From: Desulfurellaceae bacterium
GTDB lineage: Bacteria; Desulfobacterota; Binatia; Bin18
Assembly: GCA_021296095.1 (NCBI GenBank)
Contig: JAGWBB010000002.1
Coordinates: 21,463-85,462, forward strand
DNA length: 64,000 nt
Reading direction: 5' to 3'
Part shown: one piece after another, positions 7,214 through 62,931 of the stretch
Layout: the number at the start of each line of letters is the position of its first letter
Position numbering within the stretch: position 1 is the first letter of the stretch
Made by a program: the position numbers and the translations under genes
The notes under the pieces: model-generated
What the model saw: only the letters and a program-made list of their open reading frames with translations
What the model was told of the DNA's origin: nothing
Database searches by the model: none

Positions 7214-8656
7214 CTACTTCTTCATTTTCTGCTGCAGCAGATCTCCCAGCGTGGTGCCAAAACCACGGCTGGCCTGTCCGGAATCGCTCATATACGCCTG
7301 GGCCTCGAGTCGTTCCTCCTGGGCTTGGGCTTTGGAACGCGACAGCCTGATCCGTCGGCCCTTGTCCTCAACCGCCAAGACCAGGACTTTCACCTCGGTG
7401 TCCGGCCCAAAGTCCTTGGTGTGGTCGGTGCCGCGCGGCGTCCCCATCTCGGCGTTAGGAACCAAGCCGATTTGTCCGGGCCCGAGCCGGACAAACACCC
7501 CGAACGGTTCGACCCGGTCGACCCGGCCGTTCAGCACGCTGCCGACGGTGATGACGGTTTCTTCGATCTGTTGGCCGAGACTCACTCCTTCGGGGGCCAG
7601 GGCCAGGGCAATCCGGCGCTTGTCAGGGTCGATGCTGAGGATCATGACCGTGATCTGGGACTGCTCGGCGGCCGCGTCCTTGAGCGTACCGTGCTGGCTG
7701 CGCGGGATTTCGCTGACGTGCAGGAGGCCGTTGACCCCGGGCAAGACCTCGACAAAGGCGCCAAAATCGGCCATCCGCACGACCTGGCCGGTGACGATCT
7801 GGCGCGCCTTGAGCTGCTCGGCGACCTGTTCCCAGGGGTCGCCCTCAAGCGCCTTCATGCTCAGGGAAATCTTGCCCGTCTGTTCGTTGACCTTGAGGAC
7901 TTTGACGCTCACCGCCTGACCGCCGCTCAGGAATTCGGCCGGCTTGACGGTGCGGGAGTGGGACAGCTCCGAAACGTGGACCAAGCCCTGGACACCGCCG
8001 CCGAGATCGACAAAGGCACCGAAGTCGGTCAGCGAGGTCACCGTGCCCGGCAAGACCGCGTCGGGCACGATTTTTTCCCGGACCGCCTCGGCTTCCTTGG
8101 CCGCCGCCGCTTCGAGCAGGCGCCGCCGTGAGATGACGATATTGCGGCCGTTTTCGGTATAGCGCGTCACCAGGAATTCCAGGGTCTGGTTCAGAAAAAC
8201 GTCTGAGGACTCGACCCGCCGGATATCCATCTGAGAAAACGGGCAGAAGGCCCGCAGCCCGCCGACCATGACCTCATAGCCGCCCTTGATGACCGCGTGG
8301 ACCGTTCCCTCGACCGGCAGCCCGTGCGCAAAGGCCGCCTCCAATTGCTGGCGGGCCTGCATGCCCTTGAGCAGCTTGCGGGACAGACGAATCTCGCCCT
8401 CGGTCGATAACACCGTCGCCTCGATCTCGTCCCCGACCTCGACCTGCAGGCTGCCGTCCTCGTCCTCCAACTCGGCCCGGGCGATGATGCCCTCGCCCTT
8501 ATCGCGGACATCGACGAAGATGCTGTCCTCGCCGATCTGGATCACACTGCCCTTGACGATCTGACCCGTTTGGAGCGTGGGCTGCGTCGCTTCCTGGGCC
8601 AGCAGCGCCGCAAAATCCTCTGCCGTGTCGGTGGTGGGTGTCTGCGCGTCACTCAT
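7214..8656 (-). CDS. rpsA: S1 RNA-binding-domain protein (four S1 repeats; ribosomal protein S1-like)
   Basis: 480-aa acidic protein with repeated S1 motifs (G.V.G.V..IT.FGAFV.L..GV.GL.H.SE). Overlaps the glnE stop by 4 nt. Confidence 0.6.
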   Translation of the reverse strand: MSDAQTPTTDTAEDFAALLAQEATQPTLQTGQIVKGSVIQIGEDSIFVDVRDKGEGIIARAELEDEDGSLQVEVGDEIEATVLSTEGEIRLSRKLLKGMQARQQLEAAFAHGLPVEGTVHAVIKGGYEVMVGGLRAFCPFSQMDIRRVESSDVFLNQTLEFLVTRYTENGRNIVISRRRLLEAAAAKEAEAVREKIVPDAVLPGTVTSLTDFGAFVDLGGGVQGLVHVSELSHSRTVKPAEFLSGGQAVSVKVLKVNEQTGKISLSMKALEGDPWEQVAEQLKARQIVTGQVVRMADFGAFVEVLPGVNGLLHVSEIPRSQHGTLKDAAAEQSQITVMILSIDPDKRRIALALAPEGVSLGQQIEETVITVGSVLNGRVDRVEPFGVFVRLGPGQIGLVPNAEMGTPRGTDHTKDFGPDTEVKVLVLAVEDKGRRIRLSRSKAQAQEERLEAQAYMSDSGQASRGFGTTLGDLLQQKMKK

Positions 8657-11600
8657 ACTTCAGGTCCTTTCTGGCGTGCAAACCAGCGCGTGTAACAGTC
8701 CCGGATGGCCTCGCGTTGGACGTGATAGTCGGCCAGCAGCCGGGACGCCGCGTCGTCGCCGCCATAGCCCATCCGTCTGGCCAACCGGGGCAGTTGCGCG
8801 CCCTCGCTCTCCAGCGCTTCAACCGGCTGGTCACAGTCGATGCGGAGACGGTTTTCCAAGGTCCGCAGAAAACGGTAGCCCTGACTTAAGAGCTGACAAT
8901 CGTCGGCCGGCAGAACTCCGCAGGTCTGGAGAGCCTCAAGAGCCTGGAGTGTGGCGCGCTGTCTCAGCGCCGGAAGACGCCGACCATACCGCAGCTGCAA
9001 CATTTGTACAAGGAACTCGATATCGACAATGCCGCCCCGACCGGTCTTGATATTGAAGCGGTCGCTGGCCTCGCCGGCCAGCTCATTTTCCATGCGTCCG
9101 CGCAGCCGGTCGATTTCGGCCACATCATCCACGGTGATGGCGTCGGCATACACGATTGACTCCAGCAAGGCCTGTATCGGATCGGCCAGAGACACATTCC
9201 CGACCACCACCCGGGCCTTGATCAGGGCCTGGCGCTCCCACACCTGAGAGCTGGCCTGATGGTAGCGTTCAAAAGCCGACAGGGACGAGACCAGCGAGCC
9301 GGACCGGCCCGAGGGCCGCAGCCGCGTGTCGATTTTATACACATAGCCCTCGCGGGTCTGGACTTGCAGGGTCGAGATAATGCGCTGGGCCAGCTTGGTG
9401 AAGAGTTCGTGCGGCCCGACCTTGGGGTGGGCAGCGCCCCGGTCGAGCTGTGCGGCCGGCTGGTACAGAAAAATCAGATCAAGGTCCGAGTTGTAGTTGA
9501 GTTCCCGGGCGCCCAGCTTGCCCATGCCGACAATGGCGAAGCGGCCCGGCAGGGCGCTGAGCCCGAGCTGCTCAAACAGGGCCGCCCGCGCCGTCTCATA
9601 GGCGCCGCCCAGACAGGTCTGGGCCAGGTCGGACAGCTGTATGCTGACCTGGGTGCAGTCCAGCAGCCCGTTGCTGTCGTTGATCCCAATCCGCAAAAAC
9701 TCTTCGGTCCGGTAGCGGCGCAGGATATCGAGCCGATCCTCCAGGTCGTTCACCTCGGCCAAACGGGCCGACAGCTCGGCCTGCATCATGGCCTGGGATT
9801 TATGGATGTGGACCAGATCGGCCCGCACCAGACTGTCGAGCAGCTCGGGGTGGCGCAAAAAGGTCCGCGACAGATAGGCGCTCGTGCCAAACAGCCCGAC
9901 CAGGGTGCGCAGGGTGGACGGATTCTCGCGCAGCAAGGCCAGAAAGCTGGAGCGCGCCCCAATCGAGGCGACCAGGTTGGCTATGCCGGACAGCGCAAAG
10001 TCCGGATCCGGGGTCTGGGTCACCTCGCGGAACAGACTCGGGGCGAGTTCGTACAGAATCTTGCGCCGCCGGGGTGAGGCCGGCGAGTGCGGCGGTCCGG
10101 CGTGGAGCAGCACCGCGTGCTGATAGCTGTGCTCGATATCGCGAAAGCCGAACTGCCGCAGCAACTCGGCGGCCCGTTCCCGGTCGTCCAGCGCCTCAAA
10201 AAAAGTCTGGACGGCCTCGGCGTGGGGGTCGTCGGCCTGCTGCTGTTCCTGGGGCGCATAGAAGAGCGAGCAGAAAACCTGATGGACCGCCTCGGTATGG
10301 GAGTGGAACAGCGACCGGAACAGCGCCACCTCGTCGTCCGGGAGAGGAGAGTTTTGCCCTTTGAGTTTTGCCCTTTGAGTTTTGCCTTCTCTCCAGTCTT
10401 CTACCCGCAGCCGGCGGGCCAGCACCCGAATCTCCGCCTCGGTGTCCGGCAGGCTGTGGGTTTGACGGTCGTGAACGATCTGGATTTTGTGTTCGACCTG
10501 ACGCAGAAAGCGGTAGGCATGGCGCAGGCGGTCACGATCCTTCGCCGACAGGTAATGGCCCTCGGCCAGGCGGTCGAGCGCCGGTAGGGTCTTCAGCTCC
10601 CGCACGTGGGGATCTTTGCCGGCGTGAATGAGCTGAAGCACCTGGCTGACAAACTCGACCTCCCGGATGCCGCCGCGCCCGAGCTTGACGTTGGAGCTGG
10701 CGGGTTCGGTTTTGTTCAGGCTGCGCTCAATCCGAGCTTTCATGTCCTTGAGGTCTTCAACCGTCGTAAAATCGAGATAGCGCCGAAACACAAACGGCTG
10801 AATCTCGGTAATGAAACGCTCCCCCAAGGCCAGGTCTCCGGCAATCGGCCGGGCCTTAAGCAGGGCCGCCCGCTCCCAGGTCTGGCCCCAGGCTTCGTAA
10901 TAACCCAGGGTATTGGACAGGGAATTGACCACCGGGCCATTCGAGCCGTCCGGCCGCAGGCGCAGGTCAACCCGAAACACCCGTCCACCAGCCACCTGAT
11001 CGCTCAGCGCTCGGGTCAATTTCTGGGCCAAATGGGTGAAGAACTCGCGCGGTGCCAGGCTGCCCTTGCTGCCCCCGGTGGTGTGCCCGGCATCGCTCTC
11101 GTACATATAGATCAGATCGATGTCAGAACTGAAATTCAAATCCTGACCACCGAGCTTCCCCATGCCAAAGACGACGAATCCGAGCGGCCGGCCGTCGGAC
11201 GAGACAGCCTGACCGTAGAGCTCACACAGCCGCGCCCGGCTGTACTCGTAGGCGACCTCGACCGCAGCGTCAGCCAGACAGCTCAGCTCCCGGGTCGTCT
11301 CTTCCAGCCTGGCCAGGGACAGCAGGTCGCGGGTACCGATGCGCAGGTACGCGCGGTCACGGTAGACCCGCAGCGCGTGCCAAAACTCCTCCTCAGGCAG
11401 CTCGTGCGGCAGCCGGGCGCGGAGCGTGGACAGATGCTGGGCAAGGCTGCTACCCGACGCCTGACAATCGGCCAAAAAGGCCGCTTCCCACGCCTCAGCC
11501 TGACGCAGCAAGACCGTGGTGAGATGTTGGCTGGCGCCGAGCACAAAGAGCAGGTCGGCACACCGCCGGGCGTCTCCCAGCACCCTGCCCCGGCCGCTTC

Positions 11601-11757
11601 CATGGTCGAGCAGGCGGCTCAGATTCGTCGCCGCCAGGCCAGGGTCCGGCGCGGCCGCCACGCCGGCCGCAATGGCGTCCCACCAGGCGGACAGGCTTTC
11701 ACGCAGGGGCAGGAGAATGTGGAGGGGCTCGGAGACGGACGGGGTGGCGGTGGACAT
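8653..11757 (-). CDS. glnE: Bifunctional glutamine synthetase adenylyltransferase / adenylyl-removing enzyme GlnE
   Basis: 1034-aa protein with two nucleotidyltransferase modules (GMGKLGG.ELN..SDIDLI). Contains an in-frame 54-nt repeat insertion in the linker. Confidence 0.85.
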   Translation of the reverse strand: MSTATPSVSEPLHILLPLRESLSAWWDAIAAGVAAAPDPGLAATNLSRLLDHGSGRGRVLGDARRCADLLFVLGASQHLTTVLLRQAEAWEAAFLADCQASGSSLAQHLSTLRARLPHELPEEEFWHALRVYRDRAYLRIGTRDLLSLARLEETTRELSCLADAAVEVAYEYSRARLCELYGQAVSSDGRPLGFVVFGMGKLGGQDLNFSSDIDLIYMYESDAGHTTGGSKGSLAPREFFTHLAQKLTRALSDQVAGGRVFRVDLRLRPDGSNGPVVNSLSNTLGYYEAWGQTWERAALLKARPIAGDLALGERFITEIQPFVFRRYLDFTTVEDLKDMKARIERSLNKTEPASSNVKLGRGGIREVEFVSQVLQLIHAGKDPHVRELKTLPALDRLAEGHYLSAKDRDRLRHAYRFLRQVEHKIQIVHDRQTHSLPDTEAEIRVLARRLRVEDWREGKTQRAKLKGQNSPLPDDEVALFRSLFHSHTEAVHQVFCSLFYAPQEQQQADDPHAEAVQTFFEALDDRERAAELLRQFGFRDIEHSYQHAVLLHAGPPHSPASPRRRKILYELAPSLFREVTQTPDPDFALSGIANLVASIGARSSFLALLRENPSTLRTLVGLFGTSAYLSRTFLRHPELLDSLVRADLVHIHKSQAMMQAELSARLAEVNDLEDRLDILRRYRTEEFLRIGINDSNGLLDCTQVSIQLSDLAQTCLGGAYETARAALFEQLGLSALPGRFAIVGMGKLGARELNYNSDLDLIFLYQPAAQLDRGAAHPKVGPHELFTKLAQRIISTLQVQTREGYVYKIDTRLRPSGRSGSLVSSLSAFERYHQASSQVWERQALIKARVVVGNVSLADPIQALLESIVYADAITVDDVAEIDRLRGRMENELAGEASDRFNIKTGRGGIVDIEFLVQMLQLRYGRRLPALRQRATLQALEALQTCGVLPADDCQLLSQGYRFLRTLENRLRIDCDQPVEALESEGAQLPRLARRMGYGGDDAASRLLADYHVQREAIRDCYTRWFARQKGPEV
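10341..10394. repeat. 54-nt element inside glnE: GTTTTGCCCTTTGA x2.6 flanked by a GGAGAG/CTCTCC inverted repeat
   Basis: Tandem 14-mers at 10351-10386 between GGAGAGGAGA and TTCTCTCC. Length is 18 codons, so the glnE frame is kept. Confidence 0.7.
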
Positions 11758-22298: not shown

Positions 22299-24017
22299 TC
22301 AAAACAGAAAGTAGCGCTGGGCCAGCGCCAGCACGTTGGCCGGCTCGCAGGTCAGCAGCTGCCCGTCGGCCCGGACCTCATACGTCTCGGGATTGACCTC
22401 GATGTGCGGCAGCGCCCCATTGTGGATCAGGTCTGTTTTGCCCACCTGCCGGCAGTTGTGAACCGGCGCCAGCCGCTTTTGCAATCCGAGCTGCCCGGCC
22501 AGACCGTTGTCATGCGCCGCGCGGGAGACGAAACTGAGCGACAGGCTGGCCGGGGCACGACCAAAATGGCCGAACATCGGCCGACCGAAGACCGGCTGGG
22601 GGGTCGGAATCGAGGCGTTGGGGTCGCCCATCGCCGCCCAGGCAATAAAGCCGCCCTTCAGAATGAGTTCGGGCTTGACGCCGAAAAACTTGGGCTCCCA
22701 CAACACCAGATCAGCCAGCTTGCCGACCTCGATTGAGCCGACGTGGTCGGCAATGCCGTGGGTCAGGGCCGGGTTGATGGTGTACTTGGCCAGGTAGCGC
22801 TTGACCCGAAAATTGTCGTTGTCGCCGCTCTCCTCGGCCAGGCGTCCGCGCTGGACGCGCATTTTATGGGCCGTCTGCCAGGTGCGGAGAATCACCTCCC
22901 CGACCCGGCCCATGGCCTGGGAGTCGGAGGCCATCATGCTGAAGGCACCGAGATCGTGCAGCACGTCCTCGGCCGCAATGGTTTCCGGCCGGATGCGCGA
23001 CTCGGCAAAAGCCACGTCTTCGGGGACGCCGGGGTCGAGGTGGTGGCAGACCATCAGCATGTCGAGGTGTTCGTCAATCGTGTTGACAGTGAACGGCCGG
23101 GTCGGGTTGGTCGAAGACGGCAAGACGTTGGGAAAACCGCATACCTTGATGATGTCCGGGGCGTGGCCACCGCCCGCTCCCTCGGTATGATAGGTATGGA
23201 TCGTGCGGCCCTTGAAGGCCGCAAGCGTGTCCTCGACAAAGCCGGTCTCGTTCAGGGTATCGGTGTGAATGGCAACCTGGACATCATAGGCGTCAGCCAC
23301 CGACAGGGCGCAGTCAATCGCCGCCGGAGTCGAGCCCCAGTCCTCGTGCAGCTTGAGCCCCATCGCTCCGGCCTCAATCTGCTCGCGCAGCGCCTCGGGA
23401 CGCGAGGCGTTGCCCTTACCCAAAAACCCCAGGTTCATGGGAAAGGCTTCGATTGATTCGAGCATCCGGGCGATATTCCACGGTCCGGGGGTGCAGGTGG
23501 TGGCGTTGGTGCCGGTCGCCGGACCGGTCCCGCCGCCGAACATGGTGGTAATGCCGGAGGCCAGGGCTTCGGTGATCTGCTGCGGACAGATAAAGTGAAT
23601 ATGGGCGTCGATCCCGCCCGCAGTCAGGATCTTGCCCTCGCCGGCCAAAATCTCGGTGCCCGGCCCGATGACCAGTTCGGCCGATACGCCGTCCATCAGC
23701 AGCGGGTTGCCGGCCTTGCCGATGCCGCAGATACGGCCGTCTTTGATCCCCACGTCGGCTTTGACAATGCCCCAGTGATCGAGCACCGTGGCGTTGGTAA
23801 TGACCAGGTCGGGCGCGCCCTGAGCCGAGGTCTGGACCGGCGACTGGGCCATGCCGTCCCGAATCACCTTGCCGCCGCCAAACTTGACCTCGTCGCCGTA
23901 GACCGTGTGGTCGTGCTCGATCTCGACCACCAGCTCCGTGTCGGCCAGCCGTAGCCGGTCGCCGACGGTCGGCCCGAACATCTCGGCATACTGCCGGCGC
24001 TCAATCGTGTGACTCAT
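22299..24017 (-). CDS. ureC: Urease alpha subunit
   Basis: 572-aa protein with the canonical UreC N-terminus ([19 protein letters not shown]) and metal-site His residues. Confidence 0.95.
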
Positions 24018-38630: not shown

Positions 38631-39027
38631 GTCATTCCCGCCAAACAGGGCTCGCACCACCGTGCTCTCAACGGCCCGGTCAATGATTTTTTCGGAGGTG
38701 TCAGGCAGAGCCTGGTTGTCCGGCGTGGGCTGCCCACCATGGTCGTGGGCATGCTCAAGCGAGGTATTGGGATCGAAAGGATCTTGTAAGCTGTTATGGG
38801 CCATACACATGCCCTCCAAGCAAGAGGATTCGTTCCGCTAAGAAAGAGAACGTGGGAGAGAAGAACAGCAATTCACGTGCCAAGACACCGCGCAGAGCGC
38901 GGAAAGCCAAAAGACACGGAAAAACAAGGCGTTTACCGCAGGGGAAACGAACACAGATCAAACGAGCCGGGCACAGGGGTGTTTGTGGAGCAACAGAAGA
39001 GCACAAAACTGTTCATTCAATAGGCAG

Positions 39028-39058
39028 TGTTTGCAATAAACAGTGTTTGCAATAAACA
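39028..39058. promoter_or_regulatory. Two tandem copies of the 15-bp palindrome TGTTTGCAATAAACA upstream of the cyn transporter operon; candidate operator
   Basis: Perfect inverted repeat TGTTT-N5-AAACA, duplicated head to tail, in the divergent region between the SBP gene and the porin gene. Confidence 0.5.
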
Positions 39059-39103
39059 GCGTGTGACTGCTCAAGACGAACCGCCACAACGCCTCGCTTG
39101 CAT

Positions 39104-58972: not shown

Positions 58973-59038
58973 CCAAGTCCAGGCCAAGTCCAGGCCAAGT
59001 CCAGGCCAAGTCCAGGCCAAGTCCAGGCCAAGTCCAGG
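58973..59038. repeat. Six perfect tandem copies of the 11-mer CCAAGTCCAGG immediately upstream of the ribosome-binding site of the hydrolase gene
   Basis: Read directly in the sequence. The repeat is followed by CG AGGAGG AAGCC ATG. Confidence 0.9.
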
Positions 59039-59051
59039 CGAGGAGGAAGCC

Positions 59052-59855
59052 ATGCTACGTGCACGGGTGAACAGCGTCGAGTTAGTCTACGAGCTGAACG
59101 GCTCGGGCGAGCCCCTGGTCTTGATTCACGGGGCACAGAGTGACCGGAGTATTTTTGCCGGACTGCTGCCCAGCTTCACTGATCGGTTTCAGGTCTTGAG
59201 CTTTGATCAGCGCGGCTCGGGTCAGAGCGACAAGCCCGACATGGACTACACCATCGGCCTACTGGCCGATGACACCGCAGCCCTCATGGAGCAGGTCGGG
59301 TTCGATTCAGCCCATATCATCGGCGTGTCCATGGGCGGCATGATCGCCCAGGAGTTTGCGCTCCGCCACCCGGCCAAGGCGCGCAGTCTGGTCCTCGGCT
59401 GCACCACCCCCGGCGGTCCCCAGGCTGTCCCGCTGTCCGGCGAGGGCATCGCCAGCGCTTATTCCACCAAAGAGATGTCGGCCGAAGAGCGCGGCCGAGC
59501 CCTGGCCGAGGCAGCCTTCACCACGGGCTATATCGAGGCCCACCCGGAGGTCATCACGGCCATGATTGAGGCCCGCCGCAACCGGCCGATTGATACGGTC
59601 GGCTTTGGTCATCGGATGAAAGCCGCCTTCAGCCACGATACCTACGACCGCCTGCCCAACATCGCCTGCCCGACCCTGGTGCTGACCGGCAAACAGGACG
59701 CCCTGATCGCCTGGGAAAATTCCACCTTGCTGGCCGAACGGATTCCCGGCGCCGAGTGTGTGGTGCTGGAGCCGGCCGGGCATGTGTTCTGGATTGAACA
59801 GCCCGAGCAGTCGCGTCGGGCCATCCTGGATTTTTTGCACCACCACACCGCATGA
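59052..59855 (+). CDS. Alpha/beta-fold hydrolase
   Basis: HG oxyanion motif (LIHGAQSD) and GVSMGG nucleophile elbow. AGGAGG ribosome-binding site 5 nt upstream. Confidence 0.8.
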   Translation: MLRARVNSVELVYELNGSGEPLVLIHGAQSDRSIFAGLLPSFTDRFQVLSFDQRGSGQSDKPDMDYTIGLLADDTAALMEQVGFDSAHIIGVSMGGMIAQEFALRHPAKARSLVLGCTTPGGPQAVPLSGEGIASAYSTKEMSAEERGRALAEAAFTTGYIEAHPEVITAMIEARRNRPIDTVGFGHRMKAAFSHDTYDRLPNIACPTLVLTGKQDALIAWENSTLLAERIPGAECVVLEPAGHVFWIEQPEQSRRAILDFLHHHTA

Positions 59856-60926: not shown

Positions 60927-61910
60927 ATGTCTCGACTTGGCATGGTGGTGTATCACGGGATTGAGAGTGGCGCCGAGCTGGCCGAGTACGGTCGGATTGC
61001 CGAAGGGGCGGGGTTTGACTCGCTGTGGGTCACCGAGCGCTATTTTCACGAGGAAACCTTTTCACTGTTAGGCTATCTGGCGGCCGTGACCCGAACGCTC
61101 ACGCTCGGCGTTGGGGTGGTCAATCCGTATACCCGCAACCCGGCCCTGCTGGCCATGGCCGCAGCGACTCTGGACCGGCTCAGCGGCGGGCGGCTGGTGC
61201 TGGGACTGGGCCGCAGCGAGCCGGCGGTCATTCAGGACAAAATGGGCATTCGCTACGGCAAGGCCGGCGCGGCCATGGAGGGCGCGGTCAGCCTGCTGGG
61301 CCGCCTGCTGTCGGGCCAGCGGGTGAGCGCCACGGCCGGTCCGTTCAGCCTGACCAACGCCAAGCTGTCGCCCGAGCCGATTCGGAAGACGCCGATTTAT
61401 CTGGCCGCCATCGGCCGCAAGGGCCTGGGGCTGACCGGCGCGATTGCCGACGGGGTGGTTCTCAACGCCTATGTGCCGACCAGCTATGTAGGCTATGCGG
61501 TCGAAGAAATCCGTAGCGCCGCGCGTGCCGCAGGCCGCGACCCGGCCGCGATTGACATCAGCTGCATGCTCGTCGTCCGCCTCACCGACGAACCGCAGCG
61601 GCTGTACCCGGGGCTGAAGAGGCGGCTGGCGCGTCTGTTGGACGAGGATTTTGTGGGAGAAATCCTGCTCGAAAAAGGCGGTTTTGACCCTGGCGTTCTG
61701 GTACCTCTGCGGGCGGCCTACCGCAGCCGGGATGAGGAAACTGCGGCCAAACTGGTAAGCGACGAGATGGTGAGAGCGTTCTATGTGATCGGGCCGGCCG
61801 AGACCTGCAAGGAGCGCATCAACGCCTACCGGGCGGCCGGGGTTGACGCGCCCCTGCTGTTGCCACGTCTGGAGGATTATCGCAAGGTGGCCGAGGCCCT
61901 GCGGGACTAA
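60927..61910 (+). CDS. LLM-class (luciferase-like) F420-dependent oxidoreductase
   Basis: LLM fold motifs (FDSLWVTERYF ... RLVLGLG). Confidence 0.75.
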   Translation: MSRLGMVVYHGIESGAELAEYGRIAEGAGFDSLWVTERYFHEETFSLLGYLAAVTRTLTLGVGVVNPYTRNPALLAMAAATLDRLSGGRLVLGLGRSEPAVIQDKMGIRYGKAGAAMEGAVSLLGRLLSGQRVSATAGPFSLTNAKLSPEPIRKTPIYLAAIGRKGLGLTGAIADGVVLNAYVPTSYVGYAVEEIRSAARAAGRDPAAIDISCMLVVRLTDEPQRLYPGLKRRLARLLDEDFVGEILLEKGGFDPGVLVPLRAAYRSRDEETAAKLVSDEMVRAFYVIGPAETCKERINAYRAAGVDAPLLLPRLEDYRKVAEALRD

Positions 61911-61937
61911 CTCTCGTCAGCCTTCACCCCGCCGGCC

Positions 61938-62017
61938 GCCGGCCAGCGTGCTTGGCAAAGCCATATTTTTAACATTTGACTTTTGCCCTTTGACTTTCCC
62001 CTCACTCCGTCCGACTG
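61938..62017. repeat. 80-nt AT-richer insert carrying TTTGACTTTTGCCCTTTGACTTTCCCC, bounded by the 15-18-nt direct repeat GCCTTCACCCCG(CC)GGCC; related to the glnE internal repeat
   Basis: Shares the exact 13-mer TTTTGCCCTTTGA with 10352-10364. Direct repeats at 61920-61937 and 62018-62032. Confidence 0.5.
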
Positions 62018-62931
62018 GCCTTCACCCCGGCCAAGAAATCAAGCACGGCCAGCCCAAAAGCATCGTTCTGGTCTCCGGCCACCATATGGCCCGCGCCCGA
62101 GACATCCGCGTACTGGGCGTGGGGTACGGCGTGACGAAACTCGTCGGCGGTCTCTTCACTGACCACATCGCTGATTTTTCCACGGACCAGCAGGGTCGGG
62201 ACGGTCAGGCCCCGGGCGGCCGCCAGCATCCGCTCGGGGTCACGGCGCAGCCGGGCCGGGCTCAGCATCTGGGGGTCCCAGTGCCAGCGGTAGCGGCCGT
62301 CCTCGCCCTGGCGCAGATTTTTTTCGAGGCCGCTCAGATTCTTGGGTCGTGGCCGGTGGGGCAGATAGGCGGCTACATAGTCGGCCGCCTCTTCGAGGTC
62401 GGCAAAGCCATTGGGCCGGCCGGTCATGAAGGCTCGGATGCGGTCAACCCCCTCCTGCTCTACCCGGGGCGTGATATCCACCAGCACGACGGCCGAGCTG
62501 ACCGGCTCGGCCGACTCGCCCTCGGTCAGCAGCGAGGTCATGCCGCCCAGCGAGGCGCCGATCAGGACCGGCCGCTGGCTGAAATGGCCCAGGACTTTAT
62601 GCAGGTCCGCCACATAGGCGTCGATATTATAATTGCCGTCCGGCGCCCAGTCGCTGTCGCCGTGGCCGCGCAGGTCAATCGAGACCGCATACCAGCCCTG
62701 CTCGGCCAGGGTCCGCGCCGTCCCGCCCCAGGCGTAGCGGGTCTGTCCCCCGCCGTGCAAGAGCAGAACGGGCGGAGCGTCGCTCGCCCCCCAGGCATCG
62801 GCGGTCAGCCTCAGTTGAGTCTCGACCTGATAGTGGATCTTTTGCGGAGAACCGGTGTTGTGTCCTACCATCGCACTTCCTTGTGTCTCAAAATGATGCC
62901 GCAGCCTAACAGGACGACGGGTCCGAGACAA
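62002..62931 (-). CDS. Alpha/beta-fold hydrolase
   Basis: HGGGQ oxyanion region and GASLGG nucleophile elbow. An alternative start is at 62871. Confidence 0.8.
   Translation of the reverse strand: MSRTRRPVRLRHHFETQGSAMVGHNTGSPQKIHYQVETQLRLTADAWGASDAPPVLLLHGGGQTRYAWGGTARTLAEQGWYAVSIDLRGHGDSDWAPDGNYNIDAYVADLHKVLGHFSQRPVLIGASLGGMTSLLTEGESAEPVSSAVVLVDITPRVEQEGVDRIRAFMTGRPNGFADLEEAADYVAAYLPHRPRPKNLSGLEKNLRQGEDGRYRWHWDPQMLSPARLRRDPERMLAAARGLTVPTLLVRGKISDVVSEETADEFRHAVPHAQYADVSGAGHMVAGDQNDAFGLAVLDFLAGVKASRTE

Follow-up and report, generated by a model that had tools for sequence, protein, structure and literature searches.

How can a tandem repeat whose unit is not a multiple of three persist inside the coding sequence of a central nitrogen-control enzyme? 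The question is raised by a 54-nt segment at positions 10341-10394 of a 64,000-nt stretch of Binatia DNA (contig JAGWBB010000002.1; hereafter the window, meaning the whole stretch that was analyzed). The segment lies within glnE, the gene for the bifunctional glutamine synthetase adenylyltransferase/adenylyl-removing enzyme. A first-pass annotation had described it as a 14-nt tandem repeat between short inverted repeats and had grouped it with a second copy, about 51 kb away, into a small family resembling miniature inverted-repeat transposable elements (MITEs). Our analysis shows that the segment is a tandem array of 7-base units, that is, a bacterial simple-sequence repeat (SSR). The best explanation of its history, to which we assign a probability of roughly 80%, is that of a heptanucleotide SSR array evolving by slippage under filters of orientation and frame. 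All coordinates refer to the window and to the + strand unless stated otherwise; glnE reads on the - strand.

The tandem array within glnE

On the + strand, positions 10341-10394 read GGAGAGGAGA-G-TTTTGCC CTTTGAG TTTTGCC CTTTGAG TTTTGCC-TTCTCTCC. Tandem Repeats Finder (TRF) reports the interval 10349-10386 as a repeat of period 14 with 2.7 copies, 100% matches and a score of 76, which ranks second of the 27 rows for the window, behind 58973-59039 (score 134). The array-bearing segment is part of the open reading frame (ORF) 8653-11757 (-), which encodes the 1034-aa GlnE, and it is translated as ...DWREGKTQRAKLKGQNSPLPDDE.... The same glnE, with 0 differences over 3105 nt, is found in a second, independent assembly (L127, Logan SRR35761419), and the array is therefore not an assembly artefact. 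The 54-nt segment with its 14-nt tandem repeat is thus real, as is the exact recurrence of the 13-mer TTTTGCCCTTTGA at 61981 that had been reported along with it. This 13-mer occurs exactly three times in the window, at 10352, 10366 and 61981 (to 61993), while only 0.0006 further exact copies per 64 kb would be expected from base composition.

Based on the TRF result and the register seen in orthologue DNA, the core of the array consists of five heptamers at 10352..10386 (-), which read GGCAAAA CTCAAAG GGCAAAA CTCAAAG GGCAAAA on the coding strand and correspond to approximately residues K459-N469 of GlnE. The core is preceded by a degenerate unit at its 5' edge (10387..10394, -; coding strand GGAGAGAA, replaced by GGGGAGAA or GGGGAAAG in relatives) and followed by a C-rich 3' flank (10341..10351, -; coding strand CTCTCCTCTCC), which encodes SPLP. 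These two elements form the right and left arms, respectively, of the inverted repeat that had been noticed around the array, and this repeat is indeed present, with 9-nt arms that are 89% complementary. The C-rich flank sits where more distant orthologues have a second, C-rich heptamer array (CCCYAAC/CCCCCAA). Between the window and L001, the two flanks show an apparent G-C to A-T covariation, based on these two sequences.

A seven-nucleotide unit in orthologous loops

The DNA of GlnE orthologues was fetched and the same loop was compared on the coding strand. All of these arrays keep a 7-nt register, contain 2 to 14 units and differ in the order of the units. In L001, whose GlnE is 95% identical to that of the window, the array reads GTCAAAA GTCAAAG CGCAAAA GTCAAAG GGCAAAA, and in L003 (87% identity) it reads (GTCAAAA)3 GTCAAAG GGCAAAA. 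Two units only, in a loop that is exactly 21 nt shorter, are found in L132 (a member of the 90%-identity cluster of L001), L004 (86%) and L002 (85%). Five GTCAAAR units are present in L005 (71%), and two GTCAAAG blocks together with (CCCCCAA)3 in L006 (73%). The most distant examples have fourteen CAAGTCY units and then C-rich CCCYAAC units (L133, 66%), or twelve CAGCAGT units and then five CCCYAAC units (L134, 65%).

Since the loop DNA of the orthologues shows a 7-nt register, the 14-mer is a higher-order unit of two heptamers, and the repeat unit itself is the heptamer GKCAAAR/CTCAAAG (coding strand). The proposal of a 14-nt basic unit is thereby replaced. The two-heptamer unit is confined to the lineage of the window strain. 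Compared with L001, the array of the window has changed at 7 of 51 positions, more than the 4.8% found for the gene as a whole would predict (binomial P = 0.011), and these changes lift its self-identity at lag 14 from 0.86 to 1.00. Changes that perfect the 14-nt periodicity in this way are the mark of concerted evolution within the array.

One of the orthologous loops also contains sequence of a different kind. In L006, GCCTGTCCTGAGCCCAGTCGAAGGA (11390-11420) stands between the two GTCAAAG blocks and encodes RPVLSPVEGS. This peptide may resemble the translations (..LSLSKG.. / ..PVEG..) of a dispersed GC-rich repeat that is widespread in metagenome-assembled genomes from soil and groundwater.

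Copies at a second and a third locus

The second array lies between two convergent genes, a luciferase-like monooxygenase (LLM) gene (60927..61910, +; probable start MSRLG..., 327 aa as in relatives) and an alpha/beta-hydrolase gene (62002..62871, -; 289 aa from MVGHNTG...). At this site (site 2), approximately five heptamers, TTTTAAC ATTTGAC TTTTGCC CTTTGAC TTTCCCC, are found at 61967-62001 on the + strand. In the orientation of the hydrolase (61967..62001, -) they read GGGGAAA GTCAAAG GGCAAAA GTCAAAT GTTAAAA and lie directly past the stop codon at 62002-62004. Judged from their sequences, the glnE and site-2 arrays belong to one repeat family. Three contigs with an identical hydrolase protein contain 4, 6 and 6 units at this place and the window contains 3-4, a pattern that marks the array as a variable-number tandem repeat (VNTR) free of frame constraint. 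Promoter and terminator scans at site 2 found nothing, and no Rfam family was matched at the glnE array or at site 2.

Among the relatives, L136 is longer by 33 nt (AAAGGGGGATTGAGGGGGATTTGCTACACGGCC), with CTACACGGC present twice, at ~11075-11110 compared with L135 and L137, in which the hydrolase protein is identical, and the part GGGGGATT of this insert resembles the Nostoc GGGGAYT repeat unit. The insert was considered as a target duplication and rejected, since the doubled CTACACGGC is found on one side of it only.

A third array, (GTCAAAR)2(GGCAAAG)3, was detected in the C-terminal linker of an ABC-F ATPase on a Binatia contig (L117) that also bears a GlnE of the 90%-identity cluster. GKCAAAR units are thus found at three loci: the glnE loop, the hydrolase stop codon 51 kb away and the ABC-F gene of a close relative. 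The C-terminal linker is hypervariable in ABC-F homologues, with peptides such as SAIRNPQ and KSKVQSP, and related 7-aa periods (SAIRNPQ, KSQVSSL, PDSGLRT) recur in GlnE loops and ABC-F linkers across Binatia. The hydrolase and ABC-F homologues carry the NCBI name Binatia. One GlnE cluster at 64% identity includes a member labelled Nitrospira sp., and the deeper labels are not uniform. The same ABC-F gene (L117 4689-6815) has an additional lineage-specific insert of ~22 aa (KADAPNRSSEKSGASASQ...) past the start of its second ABC domain. A partial duplication of this insert (+17 aa) is present in the three closest sequences, and homologues with less than ~80% identity lack the insert.

Could these copies represent a MITE-like or other discrete mobile element with defined ends, moved by a transposase or a similar enzyme and inserting in frame? 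The occurrence of one unit at three unrelated loci would fit such an element, and so would the 9-nt imperfect inverted repeat at glnE. A further point in its favor is found at site 2, where a direct repeat, GCCTTCACCCCG, brackets the array. Its first copy (61920..61931, +) lies just beyond the LLM stop codon, and its second copy (62018..62029, +) encodes, on the - strand, the hydrolase C-terminus ..GVKA, in which VKA is widely conserved among homologues and the preceding residue varies. The repeat is exact over 12 nt, rather than the 15-18 nt claimed in the first-pass annotation, and its copies are spaced 98 nt apart. Without the intervening 98 nt, the hydrolase and LLM stop codons would overlap (TTAG/CTAA). 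The direct repeat, whose second copy duplicates the C-terminal codons of the hydrolase, favors an insertion event at this site.

Several observations speak against a mobile element, however. The copies vary in length and unit order and share no ends other than the degenerate purine-rich first unit. Neither site 2 nor the ABC-F copy has the inverted repeat, which is variable in orthologues, and no direct repeat or target-site duplication was found at the glnE junctions. In the relatives L135-137, the site-2 array is kept and the first GCCTTCACCCCG copy is not. Moreover, length variants differ by whole heptamers, not by the presence or absence of a fixed element. The predicted RNA fold of the glnE copy also offers no help, with a minimum free energy of -12.9 kcal/mol against a mean of -15.0 for shuffled sequences (z = +0.79; 157 of 200 shuffles fold as well). 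We consider a mobile element very unlikely; the single repeat family proposed in the first-pass annotation stands, and its MITE-like character does not, given the lack of common terminal inverted repeats, the lack of a target duplication at glnE and the variable size. A hairpin or RNA-structure reading of the glnE inverted repeat was likewise rejected, because its fold is no more stable than that of shuffled sequence. Rickettsia palindromic elements (RPEs) lie in frame in protein genes, add an extra surface-exposed peptide to proteins that are conserved elsewhere, and are palindromes of fixed length (~100-150 bp). The glnE copy differs from them in that it is made of tandem heptamers and its hairpin is insignificant.

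Period-7 arrays are also found elsewhere in related DNA. In a census of 230 kb of such DNA at a threshold of 18/21 matches, 9 arrays were recorded at lag 7, 11 at lag 14 and 0-1 at each of the other lags from 4 to 16, most of them at loci selected for glnE or for the repeat pattern. Arrays at unselected places include (GGGGTTA)4 upstream of glnE and (AGTGAAR)n past an S1-domain gene in L133, (GCTGAYN)n in L005, two NNAGGCT arrays in L134, and (AGTCCTG)n / (ACTCRGG)n in inverted orientation between the convergent S1-domain and rpe genes of L006 (14629-14659 and 14690-14741). Several of them lie a few tens of bases from stop codons. The rpe product of L006 has 241 aa instead of 220, and the array has apparently been absorbed into the 3' end of the gene. 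A scan of species genomes with (TTTGMSN)3TTTGMS returned at least 120 rows from many phyla; the one useful Binatia match among those listed was L117, and the glnE of the source genome was not among them. The (TTTGMSN)4 matches listed include many filamentous cyanobacteria (with 5 Aerosakkonema loci), Acidobacteriota, Patescibacteria and others.

The GlnE loop and its protein context

The identity of glnE (8653..11757, -) was established by Pfam and PDB matches. Homologues of the window GlnE match PF03710 and PF08335 (GlnE, GlnD_UR_UTase) twice each, and the protein itself matches PDB 1V4A (E. coli AT-N; E = 1.9e-71, residues 112-456) and 3K7D (E = 1.5e-59, residues 561-968). It thus comprises two nucleotidyltransferase domains in tandem, the homologues of E. 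coli AT-N and AT-C. The alignment with 1V4A ends at ..DW, directly ahead of the residues encoded by the array. In the AlphaFold2 model (49 sequences; mean predicted local distance difference test score, pLDDT, 85.6), pLDDT falls below 50 at residues 459-473, that is, in the array-encoded peptide, which lies between confidently predicted helices at 453-463 and 476-499. According to this model, the array occupies a disordered loop at the protein surface, close to where the N-terminal (adenylyl-removing) domain ends.

To compare loop lengths, 113 full-length GlnE sequences were aligned and the segment between LARRLR and DEVALF was measured. The loop ranges from 4 to 67 aa. It has 7-9 aa in all orthologues at or below ~62% identity, 4 aa in four closer orthologues (P0011, P0026, P0027 and P0038) and 14-67 aa in the remaining closer ones, so that most orthologues above ~64% identity retain a lengthened loop. 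With 4-9 aa in distant orthologues, the alignment that the first-pass annotation had proposed as a check bears out a lineage-specific insertion. The glnE array is an in-frame addition to a loop that is short in distant orthologues, and across the 113 GlnE sequences the same residues do not occur in orthologues that lack the nucleotide repeat. Residue identity within the loops reaches 20.2% at lag 7, compared with 6.7-10.2% at the other lags from 1 to 14. The seven-residue periods, including QSAVSSQ, KSQVSSL and PDSGLRT, are what a heptamer array yields when it is translated through all three frames.

The retention of an expanded loop in most orthologues above ~64% identity raises the alternative that selection acts on the protein. 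The loop would then be a basic, flexible linker of the KxKGQ type whose tunable length adjusts how the two GlnE domains, which act against each other, communicate, and the periodicity of the DNA would be a secondary feature. The position of the loop near a domain boundary agrees with this idea, and so, we assume, does its composition, which resembles that of Q-linkers. These linkers, GlnE included, are hydrophilic, poorly conserved and flexible, comprise ~15-25 residues and lie near domain boundaries. The array loop differs from a Q-linker in that it precedes the last helix of the N-terminal domain and that its sequence stems from a DNA repeat. A Q-rich stretch, YAPQEQQQADD, follows ~30 residues past the loop with low pLDDT at 501-507, and we take it to be the counterpart of the first GlnE Q-linker. 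Selection of this kind is nevertheless quite unlikely in our view, because the loop peptide is not conserved even at ~85% identity, four orthologues within the clade have just 4 residues there, the DNA units recur in non-coding sequence as well as in an unrelated protein, and the loop is disordered in the model.

Reading frame and orientation

The first-pass annotation had also pointed out that a change in copy number would shift the GlnE frame. A single unit would indeed do so, and the array-length variants observed differ by 21 nt only. With fixed anchors, the arrays of close relatives fall into two length classes, 57 nt and 36 nt, separated by three heptamers. Since 7 and 3 have no common factor, net changes other than 21 nt do not survive in glnE. 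In one 90%-identity cluster, most members have a loop of 23 aa, two have one of 16 aa, and in P0123 it comprises 21 aa. The exceptional length of P0123 is due to a loss of 2 aa in the SPLPT flank adjoining the array, not in the array itself. A metagenome scan for length variants with the pattern GACTGG N34-64 GACGARGTGGCGCTGTTC yielded only 4 unrelated chance matches.

Such an array could, in principle, make glnE phase-variable, as in contingency loci. If one or two heptamers were gained or lost, the C-terminal adenylyltransferase domain would be silenced and the N-terminal adenylyl-removing domain spared, giving a heritable and reversible change in nitrogen control. The arithmetic is suitable (7 is not divisible by 3), the two catalytic domains lie on either side of the array, and at site 2 the related array varies by one or two units from strain to strain. 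In the Haemophilus gene HMW1A, 7-bp repeats change in copy number by slippage, and loci of this type switch promoter strength or reading frame. The glnE array differs from them on the decisive point: no out-of-frame glnE allele was found among the 113 orthologues and the loop-spanning cluster members (more than 40 of the ~100 listed), all of which are in frame, with array steps of 21 nt only. In addition, the array has just five units, and none of the recovered glnE sequences was a truncated gene that stops at the array. Phase variation at this locus is therefore highly improbable.

A second restriction concerns the strand. YTTTGAC puts a TGA in every frame after three units, and consequently only GKCAAAR can be the coding strand. 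Both coding copies, in glnE and in the ABC-F gene, have this orientation. We also counted, for 132 arrays in loci among the (TTTGMSN)3TTTGMS matches listed, on which strand a stop-free frame of 150 aa or more runs through the array, and obtained 57 with GSKCAAA only versus 2 with the other strand only. This asymmetry was discounted as evidence, because the TGA in TTTGA largely forces it and because GC-rich DNA often has long stop-free frames by chance.

Proposed origin of the array

The glnE array is best explained as a heptanucleotide SSR that evolves by slippage, a member of a dispersed Binatia family with the unit GKCAAAR (YTTTGMC on the other strand). The arrays of this family would lengthen, shorten and become homogenized as units slip during replication or are exchanged unequally. 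A point mutation arising in one unit would then be amplified, so that the sequence of the unit drifts and the 7-nt period stays. GlnE would tolerate the array because it is located in a disordered surface loop, where two filters would operate: orientation, which admits the stop-free strand only, and frame, which admits net changes of 21 nt. We infer that slippage is the mechanism and that the peptide thus encoded, composed of K, G, Q, S, V, R and N, is neutral, a by-product that serves as a flexible spacer. The intergenic copy past the hydrolase stop codon escapes both filters and behaves as an ordinary VNTR.

Some points weigh against this explanation. Slippage was not seen directly, and with only five units its expected rate is modest. 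It does not account for the presence of one unit at three unrelated loci or for the 12-nt direct repeat around site 2. Only 4 arrays at 18/21 matches (7 at 17/21) were found at unselected places, so that a genome-wide excess of period 7 is tentatively indicated. A role of loop length at the protein level is also possible. A variant that addresses part of these points is that the arrays are seeded by an active sequence-specific process, in which tracts of a single heptamer are written or copied at new sites, for instance by templated synthesis at breaks or by a recombinase acting on repeats. Permissive protein loops (GlnE, ABC-F) and the 3' ends of genes would then be the sites where insertions survive. 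Active seeding would explain the one unit at unrelated loci, the recurrent 7-aa periods in GlnE and ABC-F and the 12-nt duplication at site 2. We regard it as unlikely and retain slippage under the two filters as the preferred explanation.

Other repeats and features of the window

Two further perfect tandem repeats are present in the window. The TRF row with the top score, at 58973-59039, is an 11-nt unit in 6.1 copies (CCAAGTCCAGG) between an MFS-type ORF (end 58924) and an alpha/beta-hydrolase gene, whose likely start is the ATG at 59053, preceded by GAGGAGG. Its copy number could change the 5' untranslated region or promoter spacing. This repeat has CAAGTCC in common with the (CAAGTCY)14 array in the GlnE loop of L133. 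The other, at 39025-39059, is a 16-nt unit in 2.2 copies (CAGTGTTTGCAATAAA; TRF score 70), which is AT-rich for this genome. Finally, Rfam reported a full-length match to RF02514 (5' ureB small RNA, sRNA) at 23567-23864 (+) with 95 bits, antisense to the urease alpha ORF at 22299-24017 (-; 572 aa). This match probably reflects a model hitting conserved urease coding sequence rather than a real sRNA.

Relation to known heptanucleotide repeats and biological meaning

The heptanucleotide repeats of Calothrix and Nostoc are named STRR (short tandemly repeated repetitive) sequences. Like the family described here, they are tandem heptamers, with three heptanucleotides in Calothrix PCC 7601 (as cited in PMC4692102); they belong to another phylum, have other units and are described as lying between genes. 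According to a 2007 survey, as cited in PMC4679880 and PMC4692102, no other SSR class is as abundant as heptamers in many bacterial genomes, in particular in large ones rich in GC, and it was suggested there that the polymerase contacts ~7 nt during slippage. Dispersed families of a single heptamer have been described for Xanthomonas (GGGAATC), Nostoc (GGGGAYT) and Calothrix (PMC4692102), and for Beggiatoaceae and cyanobacteria (TAACTGA; PMC4679880).

The Xanthomonas and Nostoc SSRs (Rehm et al. 2015, PMC4692102) are similar to the present arrays in that tandem 7-nt units, 2 to 26 per array in that case, are dispersed and often lie <50 nt from a stop codon, as at site 2 here. In addition, the CCCYAAC/AATCCCC units in the GlnE loops of relatives are the complement of that G-rich type. 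On the other hand, the Xanthomonas and Nostoc repeats are G-rich, form G-quadruplexes and are found in coding regions less often than expected (PMC4692102), whereas GKCAAAR has no G-tracts and two of its three known copies are inside genes. TAACTGA is likewise a single heptamer in tandem at many loci, with a dispersal mechanism that is not known (PMC4679880), and its arrays are translatable only in the stop-free orientation, which gives 7-aa peptide repeats (MacGregor 2015, PMC4679880). The GKCAAAR copies differ from it in their locations, namely a protein loop, a protein linker and the 3' end of a gene. The object therefore belongs to the already described class of heptameric SSRs and reveals no new mechanism. 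What is new is the host lineage, the unit, and the lasting occupation of one enzyme loop with turnover of the units.

Dispersed heptamer repeats have been known for decades, and their origin and function are still unsettled. The present family offers a natural experiment, in which one unit is found both under frame constraint, with 21-nt steps only, and free of it, with 7- and 14-nt steps while the neighbouring protein is identical. For annotation, it calls for caution, since low-complexity inserts of the "KVKGQ/QSAVSSQ" kind in conserved proteins can be repeats at the DNA level, not functional motifs. As for the organisms themselves, Binatia, an uncultured class, have repeatedly filled one loop of a central nitrogen-control enzyme, as well as an ABC-F linker, with translated microsatellites.

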